A stretch of 64,000 bases of DNA from Acholeplasma sp. (GCA_036677365.1 JAVBWN010000012.1:96001-160000); one strand, 5' to 3'. Counted from the stretch's first letter, positions 6,429-44,295 are shown. Made by a program: numbers and translations. Notes: generated by a model not told the origin, from the sequence alone.

Positions 6429-6439
6429 AGGAGCCCCTT

Positions 6440-7978: not shown

Positions 7979-7983
7979 TTAGT

Positions 7984-17404: not shown

Positions 17405-17717
17405 AAACAATAAACCATTTACAAATGAAAATGGTTGGGAAGATAGCGAACTAATCAGTGACCTATCATTAGAAAAGCAAGAGATTGTTTTGAACTGGAT
17501 AAAAAGTGGATTTATTCCAAGAAAAACAGAGAATCGCTCTCACTCAAGTTATGGTTTGAAACATTATCTGCAAGATGAAACAGGTATTTATCTTACGAAC
17601 AATCAATTTAAAGATGCTATGATGATTTGTGGATTCTATACTAAAGATCCTAACAAACTCAATTGGCACTATGGTATCAGTGAGAAATCACCAGTTTTTT
17701 TGAGAAATAAAAATTAA
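17397..17717 (+). CDS. Hypothetical mobile-element protein (SYGLKH motif, possible winged helix)
   Basis: GGGAGG RBS; SSYGLKH...YLTNNQFKDAM...GF. Confidence 0.7.
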   Translation: MIKNNKPFTNENGWEDSELISDLSLEKQEIVLNWIKSGFIPRKTENRSHSSYGLKHYLQDETGIYLTNNQFKDAMMICGFYTKDPNKLNWHYGISEKSPVFLRNKN

Positions 17718-17762
17718 AAACACACTGTTATAAAAGCCGTATACATAATTGTTATCAGCAAA

Positions 17763-17903
17763 CACAGACGAATTATTGTAGATTTGGGCTGATAACCTTT
17801 CCTTATCACATACACATGCATCAACGTCAGCACTACCTTTCTTCACAAAAAATTCAAAAAAGTAAAAACCGGGTTGCAATTACCATTAATTTAGTTCGTT
17901 TCA
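17763..17903 (+). repeat. Structured intergenic element, degenerate copy B
   Basis: CATGCATCAACGTCAGCACTACCTTTCTTC...AAAAAGTAAAAACCGGGTTGCAATTACC matches copy A AATGCATTATCGTTAGCACTCACCTTTCTTC...AAAAAGTAAAAAACTGGTTAGCAATTACA. Confidence 0.75.
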
Positions 17904-17970
17904 AATTCTTAAACACCAATCATTAAGTATCGATCATTTGGTATAATTGAATCAAGTGAGGTGGCAAAAT

Positions 17971-18387
17971 GCACATTTGGTTAAAAGAAGAAAAAATCTA
18001 TTAGTACTGATGCATGACCTCTCTCAATTTACACTAGTTTTCTATGGAGTTAAGTAAAGCTACTTAAAAGAGTTTGATCAAATGATTAGTGTTGCAATGG
18101 CAAATAGTATGATGGATGTTGGATTCATACCTGAAAAAATCAGTGCATATCTTAATCATCAACTAGAAGCAATGACATTTAGTAAAACAAAAAGTAGAAC
18201 CTTGGTAACCAAATTAAATAAGGCTGTTTAAATGAAAGATCATGTATTAAGCACTGATGATTTTCATGAAGATGCTATTGAACAACGCCATGCAAGTTTA
18301 TTTAACAATCAGCTGCTCGTTTGCGAAGACAAGAATAAAATTTGTTATTATCCAAAAGAAAAACTGCGAGAATATATCGAAATTTAA
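17971..18387 (+). pseudogene. Pseudogene, DUF6933-like, 5'-deleted with two in-frame stops
   Basis: One frame reads AHLVKRRKNLLVLMHDLSQFTLVFYGVK*...TFSKTKSRTLVTKLNKAV*...YYPKEKLREYIEI*. Confidence 0.55.
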
Positions 18388-18534
18388 GATGTTGTAGACA
18401 CTAAAATGTCACCAACATCTTTTTTCCTCTTTCGAAAAGTTCAAATTCGTTTTAAGACTAGGTTTTTATTTAACGATTTTCATGTTACTATTAAAGTGGA
18501 TTAAACAATATAATAGGACTTGAGGACAATTCAA

Positions 18535-18630
18535 ATGAAAGAACTAACATCGCTTGCTGAAATATTTAATCAAAAGATTTTACGCATTCCAGATTATCAA
18601 AGGGGATATGCCTGGCAAGATGATCAGCTC
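18535..18630 (+). pseudogene. 5' fragment of a DUF262 (GmrSD-like) gene
   Basis: GAGG RBS; MKELTSLAEIFNQKILRIPDYQRGYAWQDDQL has the IPxYQRxYxW signature; similarity ends abruptly. Confidence 0.75.
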
Positions 18631-18827
18631 AAGTATTTGGAGATGCCGTTATCCATGGAAATGCTAGAATCAAAGGTACCATGAAAGCGAGTAAACCAGT
18701 CACTGTAATTGATAATAGCGATGTAATCATGACTATGGCTGATAACAAAATCCATATCTATCAGAGTACAGTATACACTGAAGAAGAACTTCCAGATAAA
18801 TATAGAGGTGTTTTGGGTTTTAAATAA
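18627..18827 (+). pseudogene. 3' fragment of a hexapeptide-repeat-like gene fused out of frame to the DUF262 stub
   Basis: AQVFGDAVIHGNARIKG...GVLGFK*. Confidence 0.45.
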
Positions 18828-18904
18828 ATCCTGTCATAATATACGATTGTAGACATAAATAATATATTAGATATATAACAATATTATGCTTTGTATAAAT
18901 CACT

Positions 18905-18948
18905 AACAGATAAGTAGATTCATTAGTCACTTCTTATCTGTTTTTTTT
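18905..18948 (+). terminator. Rho-independent terminator
   Basis: AACAGATAAG...CTTATCTGTT plus T-run. Confidence 0.6.
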
Positions 18949-19124
18949 GATCTCTAAAGTGATGTCTTATTTAAATAAATTCATTTAGTGTTATTAAAAA
19001 ACGCTTCCACATGGTAAAATTTAATTATAAGTGGGGACGAAATAAGATAAAAATCATTCATAGTTCTTGAGACTGTATTTTATGGCTTGGGATATGTGAT
19101 TTTTGATAAGGAGAGTACAATTGA

Positions 19125-22100
19125 ATGAGCATTATATTTATTGATTTTCAGAAAAACCTGACTGAAACGAAAACAAATAGATATTCCTTTTTTTGCTATT
19201 CATTAGAAGAACAGTATCAACACATCACATCGCGCATCCCAATAGAAAAAAACATAACAAATAGTTTACAAGAACTGATTGAAATCTGTTTCCCAACTAG
19301 GTTTGTTAAAAAATACTATTTTACATCATCCAATTTCAAGCGTGATAAGAGAGATGGTGTTAATGGAACAACCTTTTTAAACAATATCGTTATTAGACCA
19401 GAATTGACACCACAAATGAGGAGTTTCTTACCGGATAAAACCAACATCATCTTGATTGGTGATATTCAGGAAAACGATAAATACAAAACTTTCATTGTAA
19501 AAGGTATCGAACTCATTGATGAATTTATATCAACAACCAATGATATTCAAATCAATGATAGCTACTGTGCCCATTCATTTGGCATGGGACAATCCTATTA
19601 TGGTAAACCATATACGAAATGGACAATTGATAATCCGCCACATGAAAGCTCTTTATTCACACCAGATTTTGTTGCAAATCTGATAAAAAACTGTTATCCA
19701 ATGTCAACAACAAGTGTAGTTCAAGTACATAAAGCCATTGATCAATGGCAAACTTATATCACCTTTAGACAAAAGTATCTCGAATTACAAACACAACGTC
19801 AATTTCAACTAGCTCAAGTAGAATACATCACAGCGTATTCTATCAATCGTCAAACTTACAATAGAAATGCTTCACAATATGAAGAAGACATAATTGTCGC
19901 CCATGAAGACTTTAAAAAAGGGGAACAAATACTACTCAAAAATCCTGTACCAGAATCTGAAGAAATCAATTTGATTGCGACACACATTGACTACAACAAA
20001 AAAACCTTCATTGAAAATAGCAAGCTTGATAAGCGTGGTTTTTTAGTTAATCCTGAAGAAAAAACACTTAGAATCATGTCCAGAGAAAATGTCGCTATAA
20101 GTAAAGTTAAGCCAACAGTAAATAATTACGATCAAGTACTTAAAGATAGCTTTACACTTGACGACCGCTATAAACTAATCAAACAAGAAATCAAACCTGA
20201 CTGTAAGAAAATTGTGAAGGAATATGACGATCTAATCAAACAACAAACCAAAGCCATTCAAGACCGTTATCAAGCATTGATTCAACAAGAAACACAGTCC
20301 TTAAAGAAAATAGAACAACAACGATTGGATGATGAACTAGAATCTACCATCCAAACCATTCGAAGTGAGTATGTAAAAAAACTAGAAGAAATCATTCAAA
20401 AAAATGATGATATAGAAATTCAAAACGAAATCAATCGAATGACTGAAGCCAAAGATAAAGAACTCAACAAAGAACTCAATTCAAGAATCAATAACATTGA
20501 TAAAAAAGAAAAAGATAGAGAAAGCTTAGTCAAAACTTTAAAGGATGCGAAAGAAAATAAACTCAAAGCATTTACAATGTCTATCGATGTTAAAGGTCTT
20601 TATGATGCGAAATTCAATCGAATGTTAGAACAAGTGAGTAAAGATCAAAAAACCAAAAACGATCAATGGATTAAATCCTTTGAAACTTCTAAAAAACTAG
20701 AACTCAACACGAAGTATAGCAACCAAATCATTCAAGAAATTGATAAGAAAAAAGTTGAACTAGATGAGAAAAGGGATAAAGAAATCGAACTCAAAATTCA
20801 AAATGAAACGATTCTTCGATTTTCTATATACTATAAGTTTAATGCGGAAAATTTCAATATAAGTAATGTGCAGTTTGGCTCATACAAGTGGCTTATTTAC
20901 GACCATAGGGCAGAAAAGGCAAAAATTAACCGTCAGGAGAATGCCCTTAAAAATTTCTTTGAAGGCAATGTCAAAAATCCATATTTATCTACTTACTTAT
21001 TCGCACCTAAAGAACTAAAGAAGAACTACTATGATTTCACTGAGTGGAAGTGGTTTTTAGAAAGTCTTAATGATAACCAAAAACTCGCTGTACAACGTGC
21101 GGTAGCAAGTAAAGGTATTTTCCTTTTACAAGGACCTCCAGGTACAGGTAAAACCCAAGTAATAGCAGAAATTGTAGGGCATTTAGTTCAGGATGGGAAA
21201 AAGGTATTGGTCGCCTCTGAAACACATAAAGCAATTGATAATGTGTTTGAAAGATTACCACTGCTAGCGGATATACGTCCTTTACGTTTAATTGCAACAA
21301 GATCCAATAAATCATCCAACTTTGGACCAGAGAACTTGGTTGATAACTTCTACGAAAATATTTCTAAGAACATGAGAAATATCATCAGAACCTATGAAAA
21401 GTTTAGCGAATATCGTGAGAACTTTTTTGAGACTTATCAAAAACAAAAAGTATTAAGTGATCGTATCGCTGCCAATAAAGCACTCATTGACAAAATCGAC
21501 AAAGAGATTAGGAAACTTAATATAAACATCGATGAGTTGAGAGCAAGTAAGCAAAAAGAAACCGATAAAGTCGATGAATTGATGACCCGCAATGATGAAC
21601 AAATTCGTACTAGAAGACATTTAGAACGTGCCAACCTCAAATTGGATGATGATATTGACGGTAAACTAATCAGTGACTTCATCCAAGAGTCCATGAAGCT
21701 AATCAAGAAAGAAAAAATGTTCATTCTAGATGAAACAGGCTTAATCATACAAAAACTGTTGTTGGTTGATATAAAGACAATTACAGAAGAAATCAATGCA
21801 ATCCTCTCTTCATCTAATGAAATGAAAATCGCACAAGAAACAGATATTATTAGACAACAATTAAACCAATACAAAGATGACTTTGGCGATTGGAAAGAGA
21901 ACACAGAACAATTTTACAAGCCACTACAAGCCAAACTCAAGGCTTTGCTAGAGCATAAAACGAATGGGATTGATTTTTCAGAATTGAAAATTTCAAAAAT
22001 CATTCAACCACAATATTTAACCACCCCAATACCACTCAAAACTTTGATTGAAAAGTATCAAACAGAGCTGATTGATGTTCGAAACAAGTATTACATCATT

Positions 22101-23642
22101 ATTGATCAGACCATTGAATCCATCACCAATAAGATGAATGAAATGAATTCGAACATCACAGCCATTGAATCCAAGATGTTTAAGATTGGGGAAACTATTC
22201 GGACCCTACAAGACGATGATGGCTATAAGAGTATACAAGAAGATGAAGCGAGATTGAGACGAGAAATCGCGAAATTCATTGAGACCTTTAATGTCGCGAT
22301 TGAATATAAAAATTATAATGAGGCTTTAGAAAAGATATATCAGGAGTATGTCGATTTGGATCGAAACTTCAAACAAAAAGAAGAAGCGAACAAGAAGATT
22401 ATTCCTATATACAAGAAAATCAGTGATTATTTGTTAAAGGATGAAGTTAGAGAAGCTGACAGGAAGAAATACACTAAACCGCTATTCGATAAAGTAAACT
22501 TGTTTGGAATTACCAATACCTCCAGAGACAGTTTCGGTGAAGATTCGATGGTTGAACTCGAAAAATATAATCTCGGTAGAATTGATTTGAAAGAAGAAGG
22601 CATAGATGTGGTTATCATCGATGAAGTATCTAAGTCTAGTTTCCTCGATCTACTGATACCAATACTGTACGGTAAAACAGTTATCTTGGTTGGAGATCAC
22701 AGACAACTACCTCCTATGTATGAGTTTAGAAACTTTAGACAAGAAGATTATGACAATATCGATGAATCGATTTTAACCAAAGGGATGAATGAGAAATTCA
22801 AGCTTTTATATGAAGAAAGCTTCTTTAAGACACTCTTCGAACTTGTACCAGAGGACTATAAAGTAATGCTCAATCAACAGTATCGTAGCCATGAACATAT
22901 CATGCAAGTGTATAACTGTTTTTACAACCACAAACTTCAATTGGGCAAGAAAACTCAAAATAGCGAGAAGGAACATCACTTAAACATCATTTCGAATCAT
23001 CGTCAGATTATTGAACCGAAGAAACACGTTTATTTCGTGGATTGTAAAAAGTTTGAATCCAAAGAAACAGACTCGACTTCGATATATAACTCCAATGAAG
23101 CGGATGTCGTTGTTGAACTCATTAAGCAAATCAATGAATCCTATAAATCTCATCCAAACTTTAAACCGGAGATCTCAAAAGATAGAGACGAGCGTATGAG
23201 TCTAGGTGTCATTTGTACCTATGGTGACCAAGCACGTGTCATCAAACAAAAGATGAAGGCTGCTAAGATCAAATTAGGTATGTTTAATGATAAACCAGAT
23301 GCGAGAACCATCATTTCAACAGTAGATGACTTCCAAGGGGATGAACGAGATATCATTATTCTATCCATGGTTAGAAACCCACAAAATAGAGGTAAGAGTG
23401 ATCCTGGATTTGTTACTGCATATCAACGCATCAATGTAGCTTTATCTAGAGCAAGAAGACTACTCATCGTTGTTGGTAATAAGAGTTATCTTGAAGATAA
23501 AGGGGTCATTGATTTACCGGATGTCGATGGCAAGGGTAAAGATCAAAAGAACTTCTATGTGTATAAGGAAGTCATTGGTGCGATACACCAATATGGTACT
23601 GTCTTCGATGATGAGGATGTTCTTGGTGGAGGTAGAAAATAA
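19125..23642 (+). CDS. Giant SF1B (UPF1/DNA2/NAM7-like, AAA_11/AAA_12) helicase with long coiled coils
   Basis: QGPPGTGKT, SETHKAIDN, IIDEVSK, LVGDHRQLPP, QYRSH, TVDDFQGDERD, RINVALSRAR. Coiled coils upstream of the core and inserted between motifs Ia and II. Confidence 0.9.
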   Translation: MSIIFIDFQKNLTETKTNRYSFFCYSLEEQYQHITSRIPIEKNITNSLQELIEICFPTRFVKKYYFTSSNFKRDKRDGVNGTTFLNNIVIRPELTPQMRSFLPDKTNIILIGDIQENDKYKTFIVKGIELIDEFISTTNDIQINDSYCAHSFGMGQSYYGKPYTKWTIDNPPHESSLFTPDFVANLIKNCYPMSTTSVVQVHKAIDQWQTYITFRQKYLELQTQRQFQLAQVEYITAYSINRQTYNRNASQYEEDIIVAHEDFKKGEQILLKNPVPESEEINLIATHIDYNKKTFIENSKLDKRGFLVNPEEKTLRIMSRENVAISKVKPTVNNYDQVLKDSFTLDDRYKLIKQEIKPDCKKIVKEYDDLIKQQTKAIQDRYQALIQQETQSLKKIEQQRLDDELESTIQTIRSEYVKKLEEIIQKNDDIEIQNEINRMTEAKDKELNKELNSRINNIDKKEKDRESLVKTLKDAKENKLKAFTMSIDVKGLYDAKFNRMLEQVSKDQKTKNDQWIKSFETSKKLELNTKYSNQIIQEIDKKKVELDEKRDKEIELKIQNETILRFSIYYKFNAENFNISNVQFGSYKWLIYDHRAEKAKINRQENALKNFFEGNVKNPYLSTYLFAPKELKKNYYDFTEWKWFLESLNDNQKLAVQRAVASKGIFLLQGPPGTGKTQVIAEIVGHLVQDGKKVLVASETHKAIDNVFERLPLLADIRPLRLIATRSNKSSNFGPENLVDNFYENISKNMRNIIRTYEKFSEYRENFFETYQKQKVLSDRIAANKALIDKIDKEIRKLNINIDELRASKQKETDKVDELMTRNDEQIRTRRHLERANLKLDDDIDGKLISDFIQESMKLIKKEKMFILDETGLIIQKLLLVDIKTITEEINAILSSSNEMKIAQETDIIRQQLNQYKDDFGDWKENTEQFYKPLQAKLKALLEHKTNGIDFSELKISKIIQPQYLTTPIPLKTLIEKYQTELIDVRNKYYIIIDQTIESITNKMNEMNSNITAIESKMFKIGETIRTLQDDDGYKSIQEDEARLRREIAKFIETFNVAIEYKNYNEALEKIYQEYVDLDRNFKQKEEANKKIIPIYKKISDYLLKDEVREADRKKYTKPLFDKVNLFGITNTSRDSFGEDSMVELEKYNLGRIDLKEEGIDVVIIDEVSKSSFLDLLIPILYGKTVILVGDHRQLPPMYEFRNFRQEDYDNIDESILTKGMNEKFKLLYEESFFKTLFELVPEDYKVMLNQQYRSHEHIMQVYNCFYNHKLQLGKKTQNSEKEHHLNIISNHRQIIEPKKHVYFVDCKKFESKETDSTSIYNSNEADVVVELIKQINESYKSHPNFKPEISKDRDERMSLGVICTYGDQARVIKQKMKAAKIKLGMFNDKPDARTIISTVDDFQGDERDIIILSMVRNPQNRGKSDPGFVTAYQRINVALSRARRLLIVVGNKSYLEDKGVIDLPDVDGKGKDQKNFYVYKEVIGAIHQYGTVFDDEDVLGGGRK

Positions 23643-25795
23643 TGCAAAAGTTCGAAACCAGTTTTGCCTTTCCCCTCATCAAAATGAATACGTTAATTAC
23701 GTATACTGAAGTAGAAAAGCCTACAGGTATTAGCTACTTCCTTTTGGTGCTGATCAATGAGTATTCAGACAAGTCCGTCAAAATCAGTCATTTATTAAAA
23801 CAATTTGGTGTACCCAACGATTTACATGAATTATTCGCTGATGAAATTCATGCCTTATTAAAGGCTGAAATCATAACCACTGAATATGGATATAATAAGA
23901 GTTATTTCCAGGAGTATCCACTAGGAAAATTCCAATTTACCATGAAAGGTAAAAAAGTATTTTTAGATGAAGCGATACCTTCAAATATCAATAAAACGTT
24001 AAAACAAGCGGTATATTATAATCCTGCCTTGAATCAATTAACATTAACAGTAGATCGAGACTATGGAAACATCGACACTTCTGTCCTTGGTGAAGCCTTT
24101 TTCAAACAATTTTCATACCCAGATAATGACCTAATCGAAGAGTATTATGGCACTAAGAAGGGGAATGGTCTTTCGATTAAAAAAGAAGAAATTATCTTAT
24201 CTGCCATTTTGCAAAATATAGATTACAACTTCATCACGTACCCAGTTACCATTTTGATTGAAGAGAACGATCAAATTGGTTTTGAATTTGAAGACATGAA
24301 GATTAAAGCTTTCTTTGAAAAATATTACACCAAGGAAATGATTAAAGACTTGATTCAGGTTAAAAACAAGTTCACTTTCACAATACCAGAAACGATTCAA
24401 ACCAAACTATCCACGATAGCCCCTTATAACCATATCTATTTACCAGAAGCGATTAAACAAAAACAAAATGAAAAATCATTGATTGATGTCAATCTAGATC
24501 GTTATCCAACCAATAATGCAAAATTGTCATATACATCAAAACCGATTCTAGCCAAAATCAATTCTGCCTTTGCTTTTGTAAAAATCATTGATATGAATCA
24601 TGCTTATGGCTATATCCCTGCAGGTATTACTTTAAGCAGTCATATATTTGGTCCGATTCAACTCAAACTATTGATTGAAATGTCACTTGATAACCCTCAG
24701 GTAAAAGCGATATTAGGCGATTTGGTGGATCAGTATAAAGAATTTGTATACGATGACAATGAACCATGGAACTATAAGTCATTATTACTTTTATGCAAGT
24801 TGAGCAATAGTCTACCGATGATTCAGGGGAAAATAGATCATTGGATGATTGATTTATCAAATGATGACCAAATTTCTATTTTAGGCAAAATTAAAGACAA
24901 ATCTGTCAATGAACCATTGGTATATGACTTTATTAAGAAAAAAGGATTAAGTCTATCTGATGCTTACTTTAGTGATATAAACTTAGACAACCTCGAAGTC
25001 AAATTAAACAATTCAGGGTGGATTTATAAAGCGAATAAACTATCGGATATTCAAGTACTACAAACCATATTTAGTAAGATGGATGTTTCAAAGTTGAACA
25101 AAATCAAATTGTACAATGCATTGGAGTCGTTAGGTTATCAATCCGAAGACATCCTTACATTCATGAAAGATTTCGTTCTTGATATCATCAATGACAATAA
25201 ATCATCTAATGGGCTTAGTAAATTGAAGTTGACACTCGATAACGCTTTAAAGACGCTCCAATCTATTACAGGTATCAAAGATCCCCATAATTACGCAATG
25301 AAAGATATTTTCCAAAAAACAGATTTTATTGACCATTATAGGGTCTATAGTGAATCCTTAAAATCATTATCTTTTATTGAAAAATACAACAAAGAGTTAC
25401 TCTCTGTATATAAAGATTTCGATCGATTGTTTTCGAACTTAAACGATCTCTTTGTCTTAGAGAGAAATGCACTTGGAAATCCGAAAGCAATCAATGAAAA
25501 ACTGATTGATTCAAAAATCAATTCAGGTGATCTTTTAAGTGCCGTAACCAACCTCTACGTTAAGTTATCATATATATGTAAAACTAAACTCAATATCAAT
25601 GAAGATTTTGTTCAAATGATTCAGACTTTGGAAAAGAAAGATTACATCGATAAGGACGAAACTGCAGTTCTTCATCAGTTCAGACAATACCGTAATGATT
25701 TAGAACATGCGAATGAAGTAAAGAAAGCATTAGATAAAAAGGATTTACAAGCGGTAAAAAGCATTGTCTTCAAATTGGAGGGTATGAAACTATGA
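23642..25795 (+). CDS. Helicase-partner protein with C-terminal HEPN-like domain
   Basis: TAATG overlap with the helicase; C-terminal LHQFRQYRNDLEH (RxxxxH) in helical context. Confidence 0.7.
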   Translation: MQKFETSFAFPLIKMNTLITYTEVEKPTGISYFLLVLINEYSDKSVKISHLLKQFGVPNDLHELFADEIHALLKAEIITTEYGYNKSYFQEYPLGKFQFTMKGKKVFLDEAIPSNINKTLKQAVYYNPALNQLTLTVDRDYGNIDTSVLGEAFFKQFSYPDNDLIEEYYGTKKGNGLSIKKEEIILSAILQNIDYNFITYPVTILIEENDQIGFEFEDMKIKAFFEKYYTKEMIKDLIQVKNKFTFTIPETIQTKLSTIAPYNHIYLPEAIKQKQNEKSLIDVNLDRYPTNNAKLSYTSKPILAKINSAFAFVKIIDMNHAYGYIPAGITLSSHIFGPIQLKLLIEMSLDNPQVKAILGDLVDQYKEFVYDDNEPWNYKSLLLLCKLSNSLPMIQGKIDHWMIDLSNDDQISILGKIKDKSVNEPLVYDFIKKKGLSLSDAYFSDINLDNLEVKLNNSGWIYKANKLSDIQVLQTIFSKMDVSKLNKIKLYNALESLGYQSEDILTFMKDFVLDIINDNKSSNGLSKLKLTLDNALKTLQSITGIKDPHNYAMKDIFQKTDFIDHYRVYSESLKSLSFIEKYNKELLSVYKDFDRLFSNLNDLFVLERNALGNPKAINEKLIDSKINSGDLLSAVTNLYVKLSYICKTKLNINEDFVQMIQTLEKKDYIDKDETAVLHQFRQYRNDLEHANEVKKALDKKDLQAVKSIVFKLEGMKL

Positions 25796-26907
25796 GTTAC
25801 TCAGAAATGATCAATTATGAAGCATTATCTCTTAAAGCAAAAGCCAAATGTAGTGTTGCACAACAAGCAATCGCACACATTGAACGTTTACTAGAATCGA
25901 TTAAAGCAAATGCTCAAACGATTCCATCCAAAAAGCTGATAGAGTACGAAAAATCACTATTAAAAGAAAAAGAAGACATTTTAAAACGAATTAAATCTAT
26001 AGAACAAAAGGCTGAAGAACAAGCAAAAATTGGCGTTAAAAGGATGAAGATCGGCACATCAGAAATGTTGATATATGAACATCGTAATGATCTCATCTAT
26101 GAAAGCGATAAACTCATAACGTTAGCTAATGAATTGATGACTACAAAACTTGAAGTGATGAATAGTTACATCAATGAAGAGCTAATCAATATCGCTAACA
26201 ATTCACAACAACAGTTAATGAATGCTGCTCGAGGTGTCATTAGCTTGCAACAACAGTTACTCAAACAACTGGATACCATCGAAGACATCACGTTAAGAGA
26301 ATCGGTTTATCGTGTAGCGATTGAACTCGAAAATCAGGAGAAATCATTTGAAGAATTGGTAGAATTAGGTCGAGAAAAACTCAAAGGACTCACTGAAAAC
26401 CTGTTAGAAAAGCACAGACAAACCATTCTTGAAGGCATTAGACGTGATATGGAGGCTTCTCGAGTGGATGCGTCTACGATTAACCAAACACTGAACTCAA
26501 ATAGTTCAGTTCAAGAAATCCGTGCTCAAGCAACCCATGAAATTGTAGGCGAAGAAGTCAGAAAAGAGTCGTTAAAAATCATTCTTAAAGCTATTGAGAC
26601 CAGAGGGTTCATTGTGGATAGAAAGAACAGCATTAAAATCAATAAGGATAAAAATGAAGTCCTTGTTATTGGTAAGAAAGCCAGTGGTCAAACAGCAGAA
26701 TTTAAAATATATCTAGATGGTCGTTTTTCATATAAATTTGATGGATTTGAAGGTCAAGCATGTCAAAAGGATATCGAGCCATTCATGAATGACTTAGAAG
26801 ATATCTATGGTGTGAAGATTACAGGTAGAGTAGAACTTTGGAAAAATCCAGATAAACTCTCTTCACAAAAATATCAAACTTATAATACCAATAAAGGTAA
26901 AAACTGA
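25792..26907 (+). CDS. Coiled-coil protein with DUF2997-like C-terminus
   Basis: ATGA overlap; C-terminal FKIYLDG...FDGFEGQACQKDIEPFMNDLE. Confidence 0.65.
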   Translation: MSYSEMINYEALSLKAKAKCSVAQQAIAHIERLLESIKANAQTIPSKKLIEYEKSLLKEKEDILKRIKSIEQKAEEQAKIGVKRMKIGTSEMLIYEHRNDLIYESDKLITLANELMTTKLEVMNSYINEELINIANNSQQQLMNAARGVISLQQQLLKQLDTIEDITLRESVYRVAIELENQEKSFEELVELGREKLKGLTENLLEKHRQTILEGIRRDMEASRVDASTINQTLNSNSSVQEIRAQATHEIVGEEVRKESLKIILKAIETRGFIVDRKNSIKINKDKNEVLVIGKKASGQTAEFKIYLDGRFSYKFDGFEGQACQKDIEPFMNDLEDIYGVKITGRVELWKNPDKLSSQKYQTYNTNKGKN

Positions 26908-26918
26908 GGAGGATTCAT

Positions 26919-28745
26919 ATGTCAATCAATACCAGTTTTGCAAAAATCAAACGAGAAATTGGCATCAAGAAATGCATCATCATCGATGGGAATGTTGGCG
27001 ATGTCTATTTGAATGATAAAGGTAAAATACAAAATATCAAAGAATCGTTGGATAGCATCCTCAAAGACTTAAAATACGATGACATCATATTTTGGGACAG
27101 AATTGATGGTGCAGTAGGGAATTTACAAAACTTACAGATCATCGATGAAACCAAGGTTGAAGGTGACAACTATCTAGATGAAGCTGATGAAGTTACACCT
27201 GAACCGAAAACAGGATTATTTAAACAGCCAGCGGAAATCTTTAATATTGTTTTGAAGAACTTGACCAACCCAAAAAAGAAAATTGCTTTTGTCTTAAACT
27301 GGGCGGAATACTTATTTGATGGTGGTGGCCAACAAATCGCAGGGGAAGGGTTAGATAATATTACCATCTTAGGCAAAGCACTCAAAGACAAAAAGATTGA
27401 TTACTACAATCCCGATGTGAATGAAAGTACCATCATATTCATCACCAACAAAATTTCGTTGTTTCCAATCTCGTTTTATCAAGGTAATCCAGAAGTAAGT
27501 TCAATAACATTGACTAAACCAGATCGTCTTGAACGTGAAAGAATGATGGAAAAAATCGAAGATTCATTCAATGTAAGAGTACCAGGAAATGTAGCACTGA
27601 TGTCCAGTGAAAAGAAAGCCGAATATGTAGATATGCTTGATGATTTTACAAATCGAGAAATCATTCAGATTTCCAAATTGTCACGAAAAGAAGACAAAAT
27701 GACTTTTGATAAATTGTTCTATCTGTTCAAATACGGTGAAAAAGAAAACCCATGGGAAAAACTCGATTACAATGAAGTCAAAAACATCAAGAAGCGTCTT
27801 TCTGAAAGAGTAGTTGGACAAGAAGAAGCCATTGAGAAAATCGAAAAGACCATCGTTAAAGCCTATATGGGTTTAACCGGAATTCATAAAACATCCTCTC
27901 GAAGTATGCCTAAAGGAATATTCTTTTTTGTCGGACCAACGGGGGTTGGAAAAACAGAATTATCCAAAGCTTTGGCTAAATTTCTATTTGGTGATGAACA
28001 AGCATGTATTCGCTTTGATATGAGTGAATACGCAACCGAAAACAGTGATCAAAAACTGATTGGTGCAGCTCCTGGTTATGTCGGTTATGAAGAAGGCGGA
28101 CAGCTTACCAACGCAGTTAAAGAGAAACCTTTCAGTGTTATCTTATTCGATGAAATTGAAAAAGCAGCCAAACCTAACCCACGTATATTAGATATATTCC
28201 TACAAATATTAGAAGATGGTAGATTAACCGATTCAAAAGGCGAAACCGTCTATTTTAGCGATACCATCATCATTTTTACCTCTAACTTAGGGGCTTCACA
28301 AGTTCAGATATCAGCAGATCACGAAGACGTTTCTAAACAATTCATCAAGATTGTGAAAGAGTATTTTGATACTGAAATTAGAAGACCAGAAATACTCGGT
28401 AGAATTGGTTATAGCAACATCGTACCGTTTAATTTTATCGTCGATAAAGAATTCGTCATGAAGATTGCGAAATCCAAACTTAAACCGATAAAAGCTGGTA
28501 TATTCGAGAAGTATCGCATCGATTTAGAGTTTGAAGATGAAATGAAGTTTGTTAACTACATCTCCACCAAAGTCGATATTGCTAAAGGTGGTAGAGACAT
28601 TTTAAATGCCATTAATGATCATTTATTAGAACCTCTAGCCATGTTCATGTTTAGCAATAAGAATGATTTATCCAGTTTTAAAGGCGGAAAGATTGTGGTT
28701 AAACTCACAGGAAGCGGGTTAAATTTTGGATTCGATATTAACTAA
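26919..28745 (+). CDS. ClpB/ClpA D2-like AAA+ ATPase with degenerate N-terminal module
   Basis: VVGQEEA, GPTGVGKTE, RFDMSEY, LIGAAPGYVGYEEGGQLT, LFDEIEKA, GGRDI. No Walker A in the N-terminal half. Confidence 0.9.
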   Translation: MSINTSFAKIKREIGIKKCIIIDGNVGDVYLNDKGKIQNIKESLDSILKDLKYDDIIFWDRIDGAVGNLQNLQIIDETKVEGDNYLDEADEVTPEPKTGLFKQPAEIFNIVLKNLTNPKKKIAFVLNWAEYLFDGGGQQIAGEGLDNITILGKALKDKKIDYYNPDVNESTIIFITNKISLFPISFYQGNPEVSSITLTKPDRLERERMMEKIEDSFNVRVPGNVALMSSEKKAEYVDMLDDFTNREIIQISKLSRKEDKMTFDKLFYLFKYGEKENPWEKLDYNEVKNIKKRLSERVVGQEEAIEKIEKTIVKAYMGLTGIHKTSSRSMPKGIFFFVGPTGVGKTELSKALAKFLFGDEQACIRFDMSEYATENSDQKLIGAAPGYVGYEEGGQLTNAVKEKPFSVILFDEIEKAAKPNPRILDIFLQILEDGRLTDSKGETVYFSDTIIIFTSNLGASQVQISADHEDVSKQFIKIVKEYFDTEIRRPEILGRIGYSNIVPFNFIVDKEFVMKIAKSKLKPIKAGIFEKYRIDLEFEDEMKFVNYISTKVDIAKGGRDILNAINDHLLEPLAMFMFSNKNDLSSFKGGKIVVKLTGSGLNFGFDIN

Positions 28746-29319
28746 TCAAGTCAAATTTAATGTAGCCAGAATCATCACAGTTTCTGAAGTAGAAGGACCA
28801 TTTAAACGCATGGCCATTTGGTTTCAAGGGTGTGATATCAACTGTTTTGGTTGTTGTAATCCAGAGTTACAACTTTTTAAAGTTGCTAATATCATGACAT
28901 TTGAACAGATTCTTCAATTAATCATTGAGACTAAGGATAAACACGGCATTGAAGGTGTGACTTTTTGTGGTGGGGAACCCTCTCTTCAACAAAACCTACA
29001 TGTATTGGGTTTAAAACTTAGAGAGCTAAACATTGGAACCATTATGTTTAGCGGAAAGTACATAGAGCAACTACCCAAAGCACTGGTAGAATCGATGGAT
29101 ATGATTTTGGATGGCCCGTTTATTCTAAGTAAATTAGAAAAAGAAAGAAGATTACTCGGTTCAACAAATCAAAGAATCATAAATATAACCGATCGCTATA
29201 AAAAACATACGAATTGGTTTTATGATAAGAAAGAAATGATTCAAGAAATAAACATGTCTGAGGCACTCTATTTTAATGGGGATGCATTGGTTGATAATGA
29301 CCATAAATCAGAAAGGTAA
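28726..29319 (+). CDS. NrdG-like radical SAM [4Fe-4S] protein
   Basis: EGP..R..IWFQGCDINCFGCCNP (CxxxCxxC), GGEP, DGPF, GSTNQRI. TTG start overlaps the AAA gene. Confidence 0.88.
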   Translation: MDSILTNQVKFNVARIITVSEVEGPFKRMAIWFQGCDINCFGCCNPELQLFKVANIMTFEQILQLIIETKDKHGIEGVTFCGGEPSLQQNLHVLGLKLRELNIGTIMFSGKYIEQLPKALVESMDMILDGPFILSKLEKERRLLGSTNQRIINITDRYKKHTNWFYDKKEMIQEINMSEALYFNGDALVDNDHKSER

Positions 29320-29325: not shown

Positions 29326-31089
29326 ATGGCTAAGTTAATCCCCGATTTACAAAAAATAAAAACAAGTATGAGACCTAAACCAGAAATTGGTGAAATGTTT
29401 TTACTCGAATTATTAGCTAAGGAACTTAGTGATGAATGGCATGTTTATTTTCAAGTTAGCATAGATGGAAGCCACCCTGATATTGTTTTGGTGTGCCAAA
29501 ATTTTGGTGTAATAATAATTGAAGTAAAGGATTGGAATTATAATAATTATCACATTTTAAGTGAAGATAATAGGGACAAATGGATATTAAAATCAAAAAA
29601 TCAAAGAATTAAATCACCAATAGATCAAGTAGATGAGTATCGCTGGTTAGTGAAAGAAAAATTAGTCAGTATTATTAATGAAGATGAGTATAGTAATGTG
29701 ATCAGAAATATTGTCGGTATGGTGTATTTTCATAACTTTACGAAAACCGAGATTAATCATGTAGCATCTGTAAGTTATAAATGCGAGAATTACATTAAAC
29801 TATTAAACCGTGAAATATGTTTGGAGTCGAAATTTATGTCAATTCTTAACAAATTCATTTTACATAAAAACAGAAAATGTTTTAGTGAACAAGTTATAGA
29901 AGGGTTTATAAATGTATTTAAACCTTCCCTGAATTGGTTGGACACTATGTTTCCCAATGAATTATTTCATTTTAATAAAAAGCAATTAGAACTATCTATA
30001 TCCAAACCAGAGCATATCAAATTTCGAGGTGTAGCAGGTAGTGGGAAAACATTTGTTTTAGCAAAAAGAGCGATAGACGCATATAAAAAGAAGGGACAAA
30101 AAGTTTTAATTCTATTTTTCAATATTACGATTACTAACTATTTCCACGATAAAATATCTGTTTTTAGAGAAGATGTAAGCTGGAAAGCTTTTGAAATTAT
30201 GCATTTTCACAAGTTAATATATAACAAAATAAATTTAGATATTGGCTATTTCGAAGATATAAATACCCGCATACAAGAAATTATTAAAATGATTAATTCA
30301 GGATATCAAATTGAACAGTATTCAACAATTTTGATTGATGAAGGGCAAGATTTTGAATTACTATGGTTCGAGTTTATAAAAAACTATTTGTTAGCACCAA
30401 ATGGTGAATATGTTATTTGTGCTGATGAAAAACAAAATGTATACAACAAAGTGCTCGAAGATAATAAAATAAAAACAAATATACCAGGTAGGTGGAATGA
30501 ACTCAATGAGTCATATAGATTGGCAGGAAATATAAAAATGGTCGTGCAAAATTTCCAAAATAAATATTTTTTTGATGAAGACTCTATAATCGAAAGCAAC
30601 ATTAAAATGTCGTTATTTGATCCCCAGATTTTTTATTATCGCACATTAGAACATAACATAAATGATGATGTGATAGAAGTAATTCATAAAATGAGAAGTG
30701 AAGGAATTAAGGATAGCGACATATGTATTATCACTGTTCAACATAGTACTTTGAAGTCTATTTCTAACACGTTGGAAAATCAAAACATTAAACATTATTA
30801 TGTATCAGAACAAAAAAGGAGTAAGCAAGGTCTACATTTGAACAATGATTTAATCAAACTCGTTTCGATATATAGTTTCAAAGGTTGGGAATCTAGTTCT
30901 ATCATCTTAATAATTGAGGACAATATGAAACCCGAGTTGTTATACACAGGTATGACAAGAGCTTTTACTAATCTATACATTATTAATTCAATCTATGAAT
31001 ACGAAGAATTCTTCGATGAACAAGAACAGATTGGTTTATTGACAGTAATAAAAAAGTCACGACCTTTATATGAAGAGTTGCCATTTTAA
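29326..31089 (+). CDS. NERD nuclease fused to UvrD-like SF1A helicase
   Basis: HPDIVL...IIEVKDW and SPIDQ (NERD); GVAGSGKT, IDEGQD, SFKGWE, YTGMTRA. Confidence 0.88.
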   Translation: MAKLIPDLQKIKTSMRPKPEIGEMFLLELLAKELSDEWHVYFQVSIDGSHPDIVLVCQNFGVIIIEVKDWNYNNYHILSEDNRDKWILKSKNQRIKSPIDQVDEYRWLVKEKLVSIINEDEYSNVIRNIVGMVYFHNFTKTEINHVASVSYKCENYIKLLNREICLESKFMSILNKFILHKNRKCFSEQVIEGFINVFKPSLNWLDTMFPNELFHFNKKQLELSISKPEHIKFRGVAGSGKTFVLAKRAIDAYKKKGQKVLILFFNITITNYFHDKISVFREDVSWKAFEIMHFHKLIYNKINLDIGYFEDINTRIQEIIKMINSGYQIEQYSTILIDEGQDFELLWFEFIKNYLLAPNGEYVICADEKQNVYNKVLEDNKIKTNIPGRWNELNESYRLAGNIKMVVQNFQNKYFFDEDSIIESNIKMSLFDPQIFYYRTLEHNINDDVIEVIHKMRSEGIKDSDICIITVQHSTLKSISNTLENQNIKHYYVSEQKRSKQGLHLNNDLIKLVSIYSFKGWESSSIILIIEDNMKPELLYTGMTRAFTNLYIINSIYEYEEFFDEQEQIGLLTVIKKSRPLYEELPF

Positions 31090-31129
31090 TATTTGAGTTT
31101 TTTCTATTATAAAACAGTATAGAAAGTAA

Positions 31130-33238
31130 GTGATGAAATTGATTAGATTAGACAATGATTTAAAAAAAGACTTTATACAATTCTTAGAGAATAGAGCAAA
31201 ACCTTCTCCAGGTCCTGATAAATACATTGACCAGACATCTGAAAAAATTAATATTTATGTGGAAGAGAGCGATTTTTTCAAGTATTTAACATATTCACTT
31301 CTAGACATTGAAAAATACTACTTTATTAACCAAAAAGTGGATTTGAATCAATTCGCTAAAGACTATATAGATTTTCTAGATACAGATGTCGATGATTTGT
31401 TTATAGAACATGCGGATGAGCTGTCTGACTATGATTATTATAATCCAAAGCTAATTATTGATGTGTATAAAAACAGTGTTCCAGTCATATTTAATCAAAA
31501 GGATAAAACTAGAGTTGAATTTAACGAAATCGTCTTAAGAAGAATTGTTGGGGATTTCAGTTTTGATTCATCATCTATAACCAAACTAGAAAAATCAATA
31601 ACTGACTTGTACAAAAATATTGCAAGCATGTATTTGAATAATGTTATCTATAGGCTTTTAAAATTAGATCACTTTGCTTTTTTATTCTGCTATGATGTGA
31701 TAAAAAAAAGCCAAAAGAATTCTCATAAGTGCATTTCATTTTTAGGGAAAATACATTTCATATCATTTGATTGTAATAGTATTGACCCCTTTAGTTATTG
31801 TTTTGAGGAGGATTTTCCAAAATACCTCGAAGCACTTGAACTTATTAATTTAGAGGATTTTCGAGAACAAAGTCGTTTAGAGGATATGTATGTGAATTTA
31901 TTCAATATTTCAGAATATTATGAAAGATACAATACAACTTATACAAGATTTCCACTTGCAATTAATCCATACATTAAGTCAAATGACAAAAATACCTATA
32001 TCAGATTTTATCATCTAATGTGTAATTTTGCTGATAAAAACTTTGATTTTTTTATTAATTCATATAGAAGTTTCGGAGTCAAAATGAATTATTATTTTGA
32101 ATTATTGTTACTCAAAAAACTGATTCAGAATAAAATGTCTACTAAGAATGAAGATAAGCAGTTCAAAGAGTATTATAATAAATTAAAAGCTAGGTTTGAC
32201 TGGATTAAATACGACATTATTAATGATTCTGTTAATGAAATTCTAGAATATATTTCTGATACTTTCATAAATTCGAATGAGATTACTTTAACTGATAATG
32301 ATTTAAATGACATTAAAAAAATTGTACTTGTACTTGGTCTAATAATTGACAACTTAAACTTATTAGATAGTGATAATATGGAGATTTATAGTAGACTACA
32401 AGATTACGGGTATCAATTAGATTTATTACTTAAAAATATACCTAATGGTGATAATTATTTTGGAATATTCGATTATTCAAGTATACTACAAGATTATTTA
32501 AATAACATTTATGTAAGCAATTTTAGTTTTGAATATTCAAATGCCTTAATTCAACTTTATAATCAAGTTGAAGAAGAAGACAGAGCCGAACAGGCAAAAC
32601 AGGATATAAATGAGTTTAGAAGATCATTTACTGAAAGAGACTATGCTACCTTAGTAAGAACAAAAATCCTAGGTGTGTTCAACCTGACATTCAACGGAAG
32701 AGTAGATAACAAAATAATGTTGAAATACTTAACAGCACTAGAGGGAACATCGGAATTTATTAAATTATATAGCACTTCTGAATTTAATTATAATTTACTC
32801 ATGAATGGTGAATTTGATTTGAAAGATTTTGAGCTGACACCAATTATAACTGGGTTACTTAAAGGAACAGAGCAAATGTTGAGTTCTTTCGTAGAGTGGT
32901 ACTATAATACATTAGAAAAAGACACAACAACAAGTATTCGTAGTTTCAATATTGAACTTTCAATAAGGGATAGTGAATGGAAGCAAAACATTACATTCGG
33001 TAGCTTAGTAAAACACATTGATGCACATATAATGGACAAAATTTTTAAGAATTGTTTTGAACCTAATAAACGATATCAAGTCATAAATGAGTTAAATGTT
33101 TGGAATACAAAAATACGAAACTCGAAATTCCACTCTTCAAACATTTATAATAAATCATTAATTGACCCGATAATTAATGATTGCTATCATGTTGCGAATA
33201 CAATAATACAATTGATGAGAATTGCAGATAGTAATTGA
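31130..33238 (+). CDS. Hypothetical protein with putative C-terminal HEPN domain
   Basis: LLKGTEQML...ITFG...IRNSKFH near the C-terminus; very AT-rich. Confidence 0.6.
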   Translation: MMKLIRLDNDLKKDFIQFLENRAKPSPGPDKYIDQTSEKINIYVEESDFFKYLTYSLLDIEKYYFINQKVDLNQFAKDYIDFLDTDVDDLFIEHADELSDYDYYNPKLIIDVYKNSVPVIFNQKDKTRVEFNEIVLRRIVGDFSFDSSSITKLEKSITDLYKNIASMYLNNVIYRLLKLDHFAFLFCYDVIKKSQKNSHKCISFLGKIHFISFDCNSIDPFSYCFEEDFPKYLEALELINLEDFREQSRLEDMYVNLFNISEYYERYNTTYTRFPLAINPYIKSNDKNTYIRFYHLMCNFADKNFDFFINSYRSFGVKMNYYFELLLLKKLIQNKMSTKNEDKQFKEYYNKLKARFDWIKYDIINDSVNEILEYISDTFINSNEITLTDNDLNDIKKIVLVLGLIIDNLNLLDSDNMEIYSRLQDYGYQLDLLLKNIPNGDNYFGIFDYSSILQDYLNNIYVSNFSFEYSNALIQLYNQVEEEDRAEQAKQDINEFRRSFTERDYATLVRTKILGVFNLTFNGRVDNKIMLKYLTALEGTSEFIKLYSTSEFNYNLLMNGEFDLKDFELTPIITGLLKGTEQMLSSFVEWYYNTLEKDTTTSIRSFNIELSIRDSEWKQNITFGSLVKHIDAHIMDKIFKNCFEPNKRYQVINELNVWNTKIRNSKFHSSNIYNKSLIDPIINDCYHVANTIIQLMRIADSN

Positions 33239-37476: not shown

Positions 37477-38619
37477 ATGTTAGGTGCGATTATTGGCGAC
37501 ATCATTGGTTCAATATATGAATTTGATCCAATCAAGACAAAAGACTTTCCACTCTTTGGGAAAAACAATGAAATCACAGATGACAGCTATTTAACCATGG
37601 CTGTCTTTTCAGCACTTGAAAAATGTCATGGAGATTACACCCATTTAAGTGAAGTCGTAACCAAAAAACTGATTGAATGGTATGCGAATTATCCTACACC
37701 TATGGGTGGATACGGACATAGATTTGAACATTGGGCAATATCCTCTTTACAAAACTATAAAGTTTTACCACCATACAATAGTTTCGGCAACGGTGCTGCC
37801 ATGAGAATTAGCCCCGTGGCATATTTTGCGAACAGCATAGATGAATGTATTGAACTCTCAAAAAAAGTCACTCAAGTCACACACAATCATCCGGAAGGCA
37901 TCAAAGGGGCAGAAGCCGTCGCTGTAACCATCTATATGGCTTTACATGGTAGTAATCGTAAAGAAATTACAGACTTTATCAAAGCACATTATTACCCTCT
38001 CAAAGCAAACTGTAATGAGATTAGAAAGCATTATGGTTTTGAACCATCTTGTCAAGAAACCGTCCCTCAAAGCATCCAAGCTTTCTTGGATTCTACGTGT
38101 TATGAGGATGCGGTTAGGATGACCATTTCATTGGGTGGCGATGCAGATACCATGGGTGCGATTACTGGGGCGATTGCTGAGGCGTATTATGGCATTCCAA
38201 AAGACATTGAATCTAAAATGAATGATTATTTAGATGATAGATGTAAAAAGCTAGCCAAACGAATGATTGATAAACGTCAACAAGTTGTCAGAAGGTATTT
38301 GGAAAAAGATACAAAACAACAGGGGTTTACACACTCAAGAGTCAATGGCAGTGATATGGACGGACTTCCTGATAATCATCAAACCAATGCAGCTTTTAAG
38401 CATAATGGTGTATTATATCAGTCCAAACAAGCCAAACAGTTTGTGATAATCGATGAATCCAATGTTGAAACACCCATGAATGCCGATGATTTTCAGTTTT
38501 TTATCGATGAACTCAGGTTATTTCTACACCATAAATTTAAAGATAATATTTCTAGTGTTGAAGATTTTTACAGTGAGTTATTCATTAAAATGTCTACAAA
38601 CTTTTGGAGTGAGGATTAA
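37477..38619 (+). CDS. ADP-ribosylglycohydrolase (DraG/ARH) with C-terminal extension
   Basis: GAIIGDIIG, ITDDS, SFGNGAAMR, THNHPEG, GGDADT. Confidence 0.92.
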   Translation: MLGAIIGDIIGSIYEFDPIKTKDFPLFGKNNEITDDSYLTMAVFSALEKCHGDYTHLSEVVTKKLIEWYANYPTPMGGYGHRFEHWAISSLQNYKVLPPYNSFGNGAAMRISPVAYFANSIDECIELSKKVTQVTHNHPEGIKGAEAVAVTIYMALHGSNRKEITDFIKAHYYPLKANCNEIRKHYGFEPSCQETVPQSIQAFLDSTCYEDAVRMTISLGGDADTMGAITGAIAEAYYGIPKDIESKMNDYLDDRCKKLAKRMIDKRQQVVRRYLEKDTKQQGFTHSRVNGSDMDGLPDNHQTNAAFKHNGVLYQSKQAKQFVIIDESNVETPMNADDFQFFIDELRLFLHHKFKDNISSVEDFYSELFIKMSTNFWSED

Positions 38620-39704: not shown

Positions 39705-39720
39705 TAACCTCAATGAATAT

Positions 39721-39750
39721 CACCTCAAATTGTTGAGGTGTTTATTTTTT
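39721..39750. terminator. Hairpin between convergent genes
   Basis: CACCTCAA-attg-TTGAGGTG followed by T-rich tract. Confidence 0.65.
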
Positions 39751-40095: not shown

Positions 40096-40250
40096 CCTTT
40101 CATCATCTTTATTTTATCACTTTGAACTTAAACATAAATGATTAATTTTGAGTTTTTATTACATGTTTATCTAAAAAACATTCTTTTACAATATGAAATC
40201 ATATATAATGAAATTGATAAATCATTATAAAAAGAGAATAGGTTTCGTAT

Positions 40251-42467: not shown

Positions 42468-42592
42468 ATAGATGGGATTTAAATCAACATATACCCTTTA
42501 AATAATATTCGAATGTTTTTCGTAATAAAGAGTTTTAGATAGATGCTAAATCTATCTTTTTCTTTTATACTAATAGTAGGAGATGATGCATC

Positions 42593-44283: not shown

Positions 44284-44295
44284 GAGGAATATAAC

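Follow-up and report, generated by a model that had tools for sequence, protein, structure and literature searches.

Type I Mokosh systems occur in defence islands and pair a large UPF1/MOV10-like superfamily 1 (SF1) helicase, MkoA, with a separate nuclease-bearing protein, MkoB, whose nuclease is of the PLD type. More generally, there is a parallel with eukaryotic RNA surveillance wherever a UPF1-like helicase is joined to an RNase of PIN or HEPN type. Dodola includes a ClpB-D2-like AAA+ ATPase among its defence components. In CoCoNuT types II and III, Walker A of the UPF1-like helicase CnuH is followed by a large insertion, helical and coiled-coil; these systems are defined by CnuH together with the McrB-type GTPase CnuB and the McrC-type nuclease CnuC, RNA targeting is predicted for them, and some variants add AAA+ ATPases with an inactive N-terminal ATPase half (PMC11090510). 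Here, we analyse a 64-kb window of Acholeplasma sp. DNA (JAVBWN010000012.1:96001-160000), the term window being used for this whole stretch, with positions counted from its first base. At 19125-29319 the window holds a cassette of five genes (g1 to g5), which is one co-inherited unit with an intact helicase, an intact threading ATPase, an intact activase-type radical SAM enzyme and an exchangeable RNase effector. Our preferred reading, to which we give a probability of about 0.5, is that the cassette is a single, unnamed immune or abortive-infection unit made of two modules, which targets RNA and acts through its RNase effector.

All five genes lie on the plus strand. Gene g1 (19125-23642) encodes a UPF1-like SF1B helicase of 1505 aa, and g2 (23642-25795) an effector-bearing partner of 717 aa with a HEPN-like C-terminus. 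These are followed by g3 (25792-26907, 371 aa), a helical bundle with a small alpha/beta C-terminal domain, by g4 (26919-28745, 608 aa), a ClpB-D2-type AAA+ ATPase, and by g5 (28726-29319, 197 aa), an NrdG/PflA-like radical SAM enzyme. As read from the DNA, g1 and g2 overlap by 1 base (TAATG), g2 and g3 by 4 bases (ATGA), g3 and g4 are separated by 11 bases containing GGAGG, and g4 and g5 overlap by 20 bases, g5 starting with TTG. No terminator-like site is present on the plus strand between 19125 and 33238, Rfam returned no RNA family across the window, and promoter-like sites occur in the window at no higher frequency than in shuffled sequence. A preliminary description of this locus had proposed one coupled five-gene unit, and its open reading frames (ORFs), junctions and motifs are as it gave them; conserved order, tight coupling and co-divergence agree with the proposal. 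The five domain assignments made there also hold in terms of Pfam, PADLOC (library of 2023), NCBIfam (release of June 2026) and PDB relatives.

Public genomes were scanned, one per species, with a pattern taken from the g3 alignment, which yielded 61 loci. ORFs were called in these and in three plasmid loci (n = 64) and scored with g1 to g7 of the window, where g6 and g7 are the two genes that follow the cassette. Flanks long enough to hold the whole cassette are available in 37 of the 61 loci, and 36 of these have the complete set of five, in the order of the window and on one strand, the exception (L056) being a decayed remnant. The other 24 loci end at contig ends, and their surviving parts keep the cassette order. 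The second gene is of HEPN type in 32 of the 36 complete loci and of PIN type in four. Among plasmid records, ten match g3, and all ten match the N-domain of g4 too; in each of the five plasmid species inspected (Acinetobacter, Photobacterium, Polaromonas, Leisingera and Moellerella) the full order is found, as helicase, PIN-domain protein, hypothetical protein, AAA ATPase and 4Fe-4S single-cluster protein. The possibility that the helicase/HEPN and AAA/radical SAM halves never co-occur elsewhere, raised in the preliminary description, is clearly contradicted by their presence together in 36 of 37 loci.

Co-divergence was assessed on the window and on 35 loci whose ORFs are single and intact. 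The pairwise distance matrices correlate for all gene pairs (r = 0.86-0.98, with none of 500 label permutations reaching the observed values), and the pairs across the two halves (r = 0.86-0.96) are as strongly correlated as those within a half, although shared descent is by itself enough to produce correlations of this kind between related sequences. Even so, the five genes are shown to have travelled as a group. By record title, where metagenome-bin labels may be imperfect, the hosts belong to the Bacillota (Clostridia, Erysipelotrichaceae, Acholeplasmataceae and relatives), Bacteroidota, Campylobacterota, Spirochaetota, Planctomycetota and Pseudomonadota; among them are gut Clostridia and Bacteroidales, and plasmids of Acinetobacter, Moraxella and Moellerella carry the cassette too. 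The cassette is present on conjugative plasmids, a serine recombinase lies near it in nine loci, and it is both conserved and horizontally mobile. One Acholeplasmataceae genome bin carries two complete cassettes (JBFWMH010000019.1 and JBFWMH010000006.1). Another genome bin holds a locus (L009; CAVGEJ010000094.1, 1072-3831) in which g4 breaks off near residue 505 and its reading frame runs on into the C-terminal portion of a serine recombinase; we considered this as a Rosetta-stone fusion and rejected it, the gene having been truncated by insertion of the serine recombinase. The same bin also carries a second, partial cassette copy (L051).

The protein encoded by g1 matches the Pfam families AAA_11 (2.3e-22) and AAA_12 (1.2e-44), and its PDB relatives are IGHMBP2, Sen1, Upf1 and DNA2. 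Walker A (GPPGTGKT) is at residues 670-677 and motif II (DEVSK) at 1166-1170. Given that the AAA_11 match spans residues 648-1198, the first RecA domain is split by a long insertion, which sits between these two motifs and may, by sequence reading, be helical or coiled-coil. The helicase motifs are invariant across 44 sequences, Walker A being kept in all 43 full-length homologues, and these features place g1 among the UPF1-like SF1B helicases. The N-terminal 640 residues or so have no family match, and a profile search with them against the PDB was also empty. PADLOC's MkoA model matches g1 at 2.7e-90, in two stretches that lie on the helicase core only (best 1160-1488). Two NCBIfam labels, "PLuB system" and "ProA", were rejected for g1, since they match the helicase core only and score far under their cutoffs, in the proteobacterial copies as well; the "PLuB system" is unmentioned in open-access full text.

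In g2, a conserved N-domain is joined to an interchangeable C-terminal RNase, HEPN in this window and PIN in Proteobacteria. The AlphaFold model (predicted local distance difference test, pLDDT, of 90) presents a beta-rich N-terminal third (residues 1-350, approximately), a helical middle and a four-helix C-terminus carrying the catalytic motif RNDLEH (R684-H689; positions 25691-25708 on the plus strand, from the translation). Residues 29-74, approximately, can be read in this model as winged-helix-like. Neither the sequence profile nor the fold (cutoff E<=0.001) of g2 has a PDB match, the profile of the C-terminus returned nothing meaningful from the PDB, and g2 belongs to no curated family. 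Within its own family, R681, R684, N685 and H689 are invariant in 22 homologues, and Rx4H is kept in all 41 full-length homologues. DUF4145 matches the window protein at 3.4e-4, with 21.1 bits against a Pfam cutoff of 23.1. The motif, standing in a modelled C-terminal helical bundle, points to the DUF4145 branch of the HEPN superfamily.

The proteobacterial protein at this position is 700-820 aa long and ends in a PIN_4 domain (1.5e-19 to 7e-24). When the HEPN-type (n = 22) and PIN-type (n = 7) profiles are compared, their first 280 residues or so align (hhalign 97.7%, E = 1.5e-12). The N-domain profile gave 412 representatives at 50% clustering, and 62 of these, all of at least 650 aa, were scanned (58 from P0183 onward and four higher-ranked). 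Their C-termini match DUF4145 in 20 cases (12 pass the Pfam cutoff and eight more fall below it), PIN_4 in 13 and HEPN_MAE_28990 in one, while 28 have no match; all RNase-domain matches are at the C-terminus. Since two unrelated RNase folds occupy the same position on a common scaffold, the C-terminal domain is identified as the effector. The HEPN assignment made in the preliminary description holds for this locus; the effector is exchangeable and is of PIN type in Proteobacteria. Of the five genes, g2 diverges fastest (mean pairwise distance of 0.70).

The least divergent is g4 (0.25). Its product matches AAA_2 (2e-52) and ClpB_D2-small in Pfam and ClpB D2 structures at 5e-57, with Walker A as GPTGVGKT, Walker B as DEIEK and the pore loop GYVG at residues 386-389; all three are kept in 56 of 56 full-length homologues. 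Residues 288-602 align with ClpB 557-851 and score 256.9 against a cutoff of 1232, so that g4 would contain the D2 module only and falls outside the full ClpB/Hsp100 disaggregases, which have D1 and D2 rings and a middle domain. Residues 1-285 form a conserved N-domain specific to the family, which has no PDB match by sequence or profile and recurs in AAA proteins of two unrelated loci. In the ESM Atlas it is found in unnamed clusters only, and since the nearest named clusters are AAA or AAA_2, it may be a degenerate ATPase domain.

For g5, Pfam gives Fer4_12 (2.5e-23), and the best five NCBIfam models are NrdG, NrdG3, YjjW, PflA and NrdG2, all below cutoff. Against NrdG, the window protein reaches 1.4e-20 (73.8 bits) and the Acinetobacter orthologue 1e-28 (100.3 bits), where the cutoff is 126.1; MoaA (1e-6) and QueE (7.5e-5) are weaker matches than the activase models. 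The cluster motif CDINCFGC is at residues 36-43 and is accompanied by GGEP; CxxxCxxC and GGEP are kept in all 53 full-length homologues, and g5 is about 30% identical to phage NrdG. By motifs and best profiles, g5 is thus probably an activase of the type that serves glycyl-radical enzymes, although it stays below the curated activase cutoff. PADLOC's viperin profiles (pVip), of 257 and 262 positions, match it at 5.6e-4 over stretches of about 75-95 residues only, and g5, at 197 aa, is far shorter than these profiles and would not be classed as a viperin.

A model of g3 (pLDDT of 79) consists of a helical bundle (residues 1-270) and a conserved alpha/beta C-domain (about 245-345). A search with g3 returned 433 homologues. 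The invariant residues of the g3 alignment cluster at 254-354, including G321-Q322-x-C324 and NPD at 352-354. The tail of g3 (residues 349-371; window 26836-26904) opens with a W-x-N-P-D motif, in which N352, P353 and D354 are invariant, and has a pLDDT below 50 from residue 353; the motif looks like a short docking motif. Neither PDB nor BFVD has a match to the g3 fold at E<=0.001, the g3 profile returned nothing meaningful from the PDB, and the C-domain is found in unnamed clusters only of the ESM Atlas. DUF2997 (PF11211) matches the window protein at E = 5e-3, with 17.1 bits against a cutoff of 24.1, and 9 of 24 family members at E<=1. Compared with four annotated or Pfam-matched DUF2997 proteins, g3 aligns over their full length (hhalign E = 1.2e-3, probability of 19%). 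The link between g3 and DUF2997 receives stronger support from gene neighbourhood than from sequence. One further candidate relative, the N-domain of spermine synthase, gave a local match with a probability of 0.99 and an E of 0.12, and this lead was not used; SpmSyn_N has sub-threshold Pfam matches in 3 of 24 family members, which were not built upon.

Relatives of the g4 N-domain and of g5 also occur on plasmids outside the cassette. A Paenibacillus polymyxa plasmid encodes an AAA ATPase, DUF1257, DUF2997 and a radical SAM enzyme together. The corresponding set on a Bacillus cereus plasmid is a radical SAM enzyme, a hypothetical protein, a helix-hairpin-helix (HhH) protein, an AAA protein and DUF2997, and on Arthrobacter and Rhodococcus plasmids an AAA protein, a 141-aa protein, DUF2997, an HhH protein and a radical SAM enzyme. 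An Aristaeella lactis plasmid presents a radical SAM enzyme and a g4-like AAA protein in an operon with a giant DUF4011 helicase, two kinases, a phosphatase and an FHA protein, and a Geminocystis plasmid a radical SAM enzyme, three DO-GTPases, a 427-aa protein and a g4-like AAA protein. The C-terminus of the Geminocystis 427-aa protein resembles that of g3 (hhalign E = 4.7e-5, probability of 68%). A 430-aa protein of Aristaeella was considered as a g3 counterpart and rejected, its likeness to g3 not being detectable.

In comparison with the cassette, the plasmid AAA+/DUF1257/DUF2997/radical SAM clusters have the NrdG-like radical SAM family in common, plus an AAA+ ATPase and a DUF2997-type protein. 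They differ in that their AAA+ proteins are annotated as "AAA family ATPase" (that of Arthrobacter, the sole one scanned, being of the classical PF00004 type), each small protein has a gene of its own, and neither a helicase nor an RNase goes with them. No description of their function was found in open-access full text. In cyanobacteria, DUF2997 and DUF1257 (ycf35) adjoin the ferredoxin gene fed7 (PMC4284462), which gives another link of DUF2997 to an iron-sulfur protein. The C-domain of g3, g4 and g5 appear, on this evidence, to be a version of a recurrent module of AAA+ ATPase, DUF2997-like protein and NrdG-like radical SAM enzyme. The preliminary description had called g5 an orphan radical SAM enzyme, and this does not hold, since g5 belongs to that module. 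Two other settings of g5-like enzymes were noticed. On a Calothrix plasmid, an Hsp70 family gene is clustered with a TPR protein, a g5-like radical SAM enzyme and an AAA ATPase; on a Treponema succinifaciens plasmid (NC_015386.1, 61913-64068), a g5-like radical SAM enzyme and an AAA ATPase stand between VgrG-type and baseplate genes, inside a contractile-injection-system locus.

The genes around the cassette were also examined. In the window, a type I restriction-modification system, an AAA_25 gene and a GIY-YIG gene lie upstream, and NERD-UvrD, then Abi_2 and Fic genes further along, lie downstream; the restriction-modification, GIY-YIG and NERD genes listed in the preliminary description are thus present. 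The DUF262 gene listed with them is merely a remnant of about 49 codons at 18535, whose N-terminus is DUF262-like by eye, and the one HEPN feature of the flanking HEPN gene, g7 (702 aa), is a terminal RNSKFH (Rx4H) motif, g7 having no Pfam family match. Since g6 (NERD and UvrD; 29326-31089; PADLOC C3a187, 1.3e-58) starts 6 bases past g5, the transcription unit here probably extends beyond the cassette, and g6 is probably co-transcribed with it in this genome. Homologues of g6 and g7 are found beside the cassette in none of the 64 loci, so they are neighbours, not members; together (29326-33238) they resemble an independent pair of system genes that is co-transcribed with the cassette.

Across loci, flanking ORFs of at least 200 aa within 5 kb of the cassette were counted, and 33 of 123, in 24 of 36 loci, match PADLOC models at E<=1e-10. 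These include HEC-05, HEC-06, PDC-S01, S13, S22, S57, CARF, DrmD-like helicases, AbiTii, AbiEi and HerA, as well as type I, IIG and IV restriction enzymes. A protein of about 175 aa with sub-threshold helix-turn-helix (HTH) matches is encoded 1-2 bases upstream of g1 in 13 loci. Directly after g5, a DEDDh (RNase_T) exonuclease is present in six loci and an RNase III-domain protein in five; such extra genes are, for instance, at 13468-13980 of L011 and 10972-12093 of L023. In Acinetobacter, two copies have a second, larger radical SAM gene just downstream of the cassette (L001, 12460-14442; L063, 13951-14937). That of L063 matches pVip at 2.9e-12, and in L001 the annotation places a small AAA ATPase ahead of the gene and a hypothetical one behind it.

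Some further features of the window are recorded here. Immediately upstream of g1, 17717-19124 is a stretch of about 1.4 kb with no ORF of at least 80 aa, holding short ORFs that resemble gene remnants, and near 18907-18955 a hairpin has a T-run behind it. An Hsp70-like gene (6440-7978; HSP70, 2.6e-51) is located just upstream of the type I restriction-modification system, preceded by two unannotatable ORFs (4229-5317 and 5298-6428) and followed by a 102-aa ORF, the whole region being 4229-8283. Genes for ADP-ribosylglycohydrolases are at 37477-38619 and 44296-45126 and a macro-domain gene at 42593-43540, which suggests that functions reversing ADP-ribosylation are part of the same island (37477-45126). 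An Abi_2 gene on the minus strand (55904-56845) adjoins a Fic/DOC gene (57115-58278).

In the preferred reading, the first module would be g1 and g2: the helicase would load onto invader-derived RNA or single-stranded nucleic acid, and g2, once paired with it, would cleave RNA, the two acting as a nucleic-acid-sensing helicase-RNase pair of the kind proposed for Mokosh and CoCoNuT. The second module would be the C-domain of g3 with g4 and g5. By analogy with its closest relatives, g5 may abstract a hydrogen from a protein partner, the candidate substrates being the Gly-Gln-x-Cys loop, invariant in g3, or a chain that g4 presents or threads; g4 would spend ATP on unfolding or remodelling a component. 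This module might then license or restrain the RNase, that is, switch it on or off. The immune role, the RNA target, the substrate of the radical SAM enzyme and the direction of control are what we infer. A specific protein-radical switch controlling the RNase is a tentative proposal, with perhaps one chance in six of being right. In a more general version, an NrdG-type activase fed by the AAA+ ATPase would install or exploit a radical on the Gly-Gln-x-Cys loop and so license an antiviral helicase-RNase, and the triad would be a portable controller of conflict systems, plugged into UPF1-like helicases, DUF4011 helicases and DO-GTPases; we regard this version as speculative and rather doubtful.

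A number of observations weigh against the preferred reading. The relatives of g4 and g5 associate with quite different partners, so the second module may act independently of the first. No glycyl-radical enzyme or NrdD domain is found in g1 to g4 by Pfam, nor any RVxG-type motif in a check by eye, and some hosts of the cassette (Acinetobacter, Moraxella and Polaromonas, for example) are strict aerobes, in which a stable glycyl radical would not survive according to the established chemistry of glycyl-radical enzymes. Together, these two points argue against a classical stable glycyl radical, and a single-turnover modification by g5 is just as likely. The likeness of g3 to DUF2997 is statistically weak, likeness of residues 245-300, approximately, to DUF1257 (Ycf35) was not detected by hhalign or Pfam, and fused or longer forms of g3 were not found, which is weak evidence; the short g3 matches, on contigs of 681-2586 bases, are probably cut at contig ends. 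The count of PADLOC matches in the flanks has no background control, and several of the matches are generic (ABC-type ATPase, WYL, HTH, DEDDh). Finally, the cassette is absent from the phage collection searched, which gives no direct phage link.

Other explanations were considered. The two halves may be independent systems standing side by side, a Mokosh-like g1-g2 pair and a self-contained g3-g5, co-inherited with no cross-control. The strong match of g1 to the Mokosh helicase model would fit such an arrangement, relatives of g4 and g5 do occur without g1 and g2, alone on plasmids or with other NTPases, and defence islands pack unrelated systems tightly, as with g6, which lies 6 bases past g5 and yet is no member. 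However, we consider it unlikely, given the single order of both halves in 36 of 37 loci, the match of all ten g3-matching plasmid records to the g4 N-domain, the cross-half co-divergence (r = 0.86-0.96) equal to that within halves, and the fact that no g3 locus lacks g1-g2 except the decayed remnant L056. The cassette could also be a unit of mobile-element maintenance, competition or quality control (addiction, exclusion, or RNA or protein surveillance), whose RNase would hit RNA of the host or of a rival element. In favour of such a role, the cassette is frequent on conjugative plasmids and beside serine recombinases, the simpler AAA-DUF2997-HhH-radical SAM modules of actinobacterial and Bacillus plasmids have no obvious effector near them, and eukaryotic nonsense-mediated decay likewise works by combining UPF1 with a PIN endonuclease. 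We nevertheless hold it to be improbable, since the neighbours of the cassette are known or candidate defence genes both in the window and in 24 of 36 loci, since swapping of effectors and a fast-evolving g2 are typical of conflict systems, and since no conserved antitoxin-like small partner is present.

The substrate of g5 might instead be a nucleotide or nucleic acid, in which case it would make a viperin-like chain terminator or signal, or modify RNA or DNA, and the part played by the AAA+ ATPase would be limited to assembling or recycling the complex. Prokaryotic viperins are the sole established radical SAM defence family, and g5 has its weak pVip match (5.6e-4); HhH DNA-binding proteins accompany the simpler modules, and aerobic hosts speak against a stable protein radical. 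Yet the best matches of g5 are all protein-directed glycyl-radical activases (NrdG at 1.4e-20, compared with 7.5e-5 for QueE and 1e-6 for MoaA), the protein is much shorter than the pVip profiles and matched over a part only, and it is always coupled to a protein-threading ATPase with an intact pore loop, so we give this explanation a small chance only. The least probable explanation, which we would hardly expect to hold, is that one of the systems described before (Mokosh, Dodola, PDC-M37 or CoCoNuT) has simply gained extra genes. Matches to PADLOC's MkoA (2.7e-90), PDC-M37B (4.4e-34) and DolB (1.9e-21) favour it, as does the UPF1-like CnuH with its coiled-coil insertion, described in PMC11090510, whereas the defining partners are absent. 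Even at E<=10, g2 and g3 have no PADLOC match, MkoB models match none of g1 to g7 at E<=0.01, DolA and PDC-M37A models match none of these seven either, no McrB- or McrC-type gene is present, and none of the five proteins reaches an NCBIfam cutoff, whether taken from the window or from two proteobacterial copies. The preliminary description knew of no named system uniting the five, and this agrees with the database tests and with open-access full text, where the five-gene combination is not described, subscription journals and supplements being outside that coverage.

If the cassette is immune, as in the preferred reading, it adds a widespread multi-gene system to those described. The coupling of an activase-type radical SAM enzyme to an unfoldase is used by none of the defence systems searched or tested, and a protein-radical switch, if true, would be the first role of glycyl-radical-activase chemistry outside metabolism, one that must work in aerobes. 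The AAA+/DUF2997/radical SAM triad offers a concrete hypothesis for the function of DUF2997 and related families, and the swap between HEPN and PIN provides a built-in comparison for effector studies, as a natural control.

In comparison with the described systems, the cassette resembles type I Mokosh in its large helicase and separate nuclease-bearing partner (g1 with MkoA, 2.7e-90), although that match is confined to the helicase core, the partner bears HEPN or PIN, and g3 to g5 have no Mokosh counterpart. It differs from CoCoNuT in lacking both the McrB-type GTPase and the McrC nuclease, the McrB model reaching merely 5.9e-3 on the AAA+ core of g4; moreover, the AAA+ proteins there are of CDC48 type, whereas g4 is of ClpB-D2 type, and radical SAM enzymes are unmentioned in PMC11090510. 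The likeness to Dodola and PDC-M37 is in g4, which matches DolB (1.9e-21) and PDC-M37B (4.4e-34), yet the cassette has neither DolA nor PDC-M37A, and g4 carries a conserved N-terminal domain of its own. As for NrdG and PflA, g5 has the same N-terminal CxxxCxxC, GGEP, small single-domain size and best profile matches, and is unlike them in scoring below the curated cutoffs, in having no glycyl-radical enzyme in its cassette, in occurring in strict aerobes and in being always linked to an AAA+ ATPase. The cassette is therefore not a member of Mokosh, Dodola, PDC-M37, CoCoNuT or the viperins. It joins the helicase-nuclease class of candidate immune systems, within which it is set apart by an obligatory, portable module of unfoldase, radical SAM enzyme and DUF2997-like protein.

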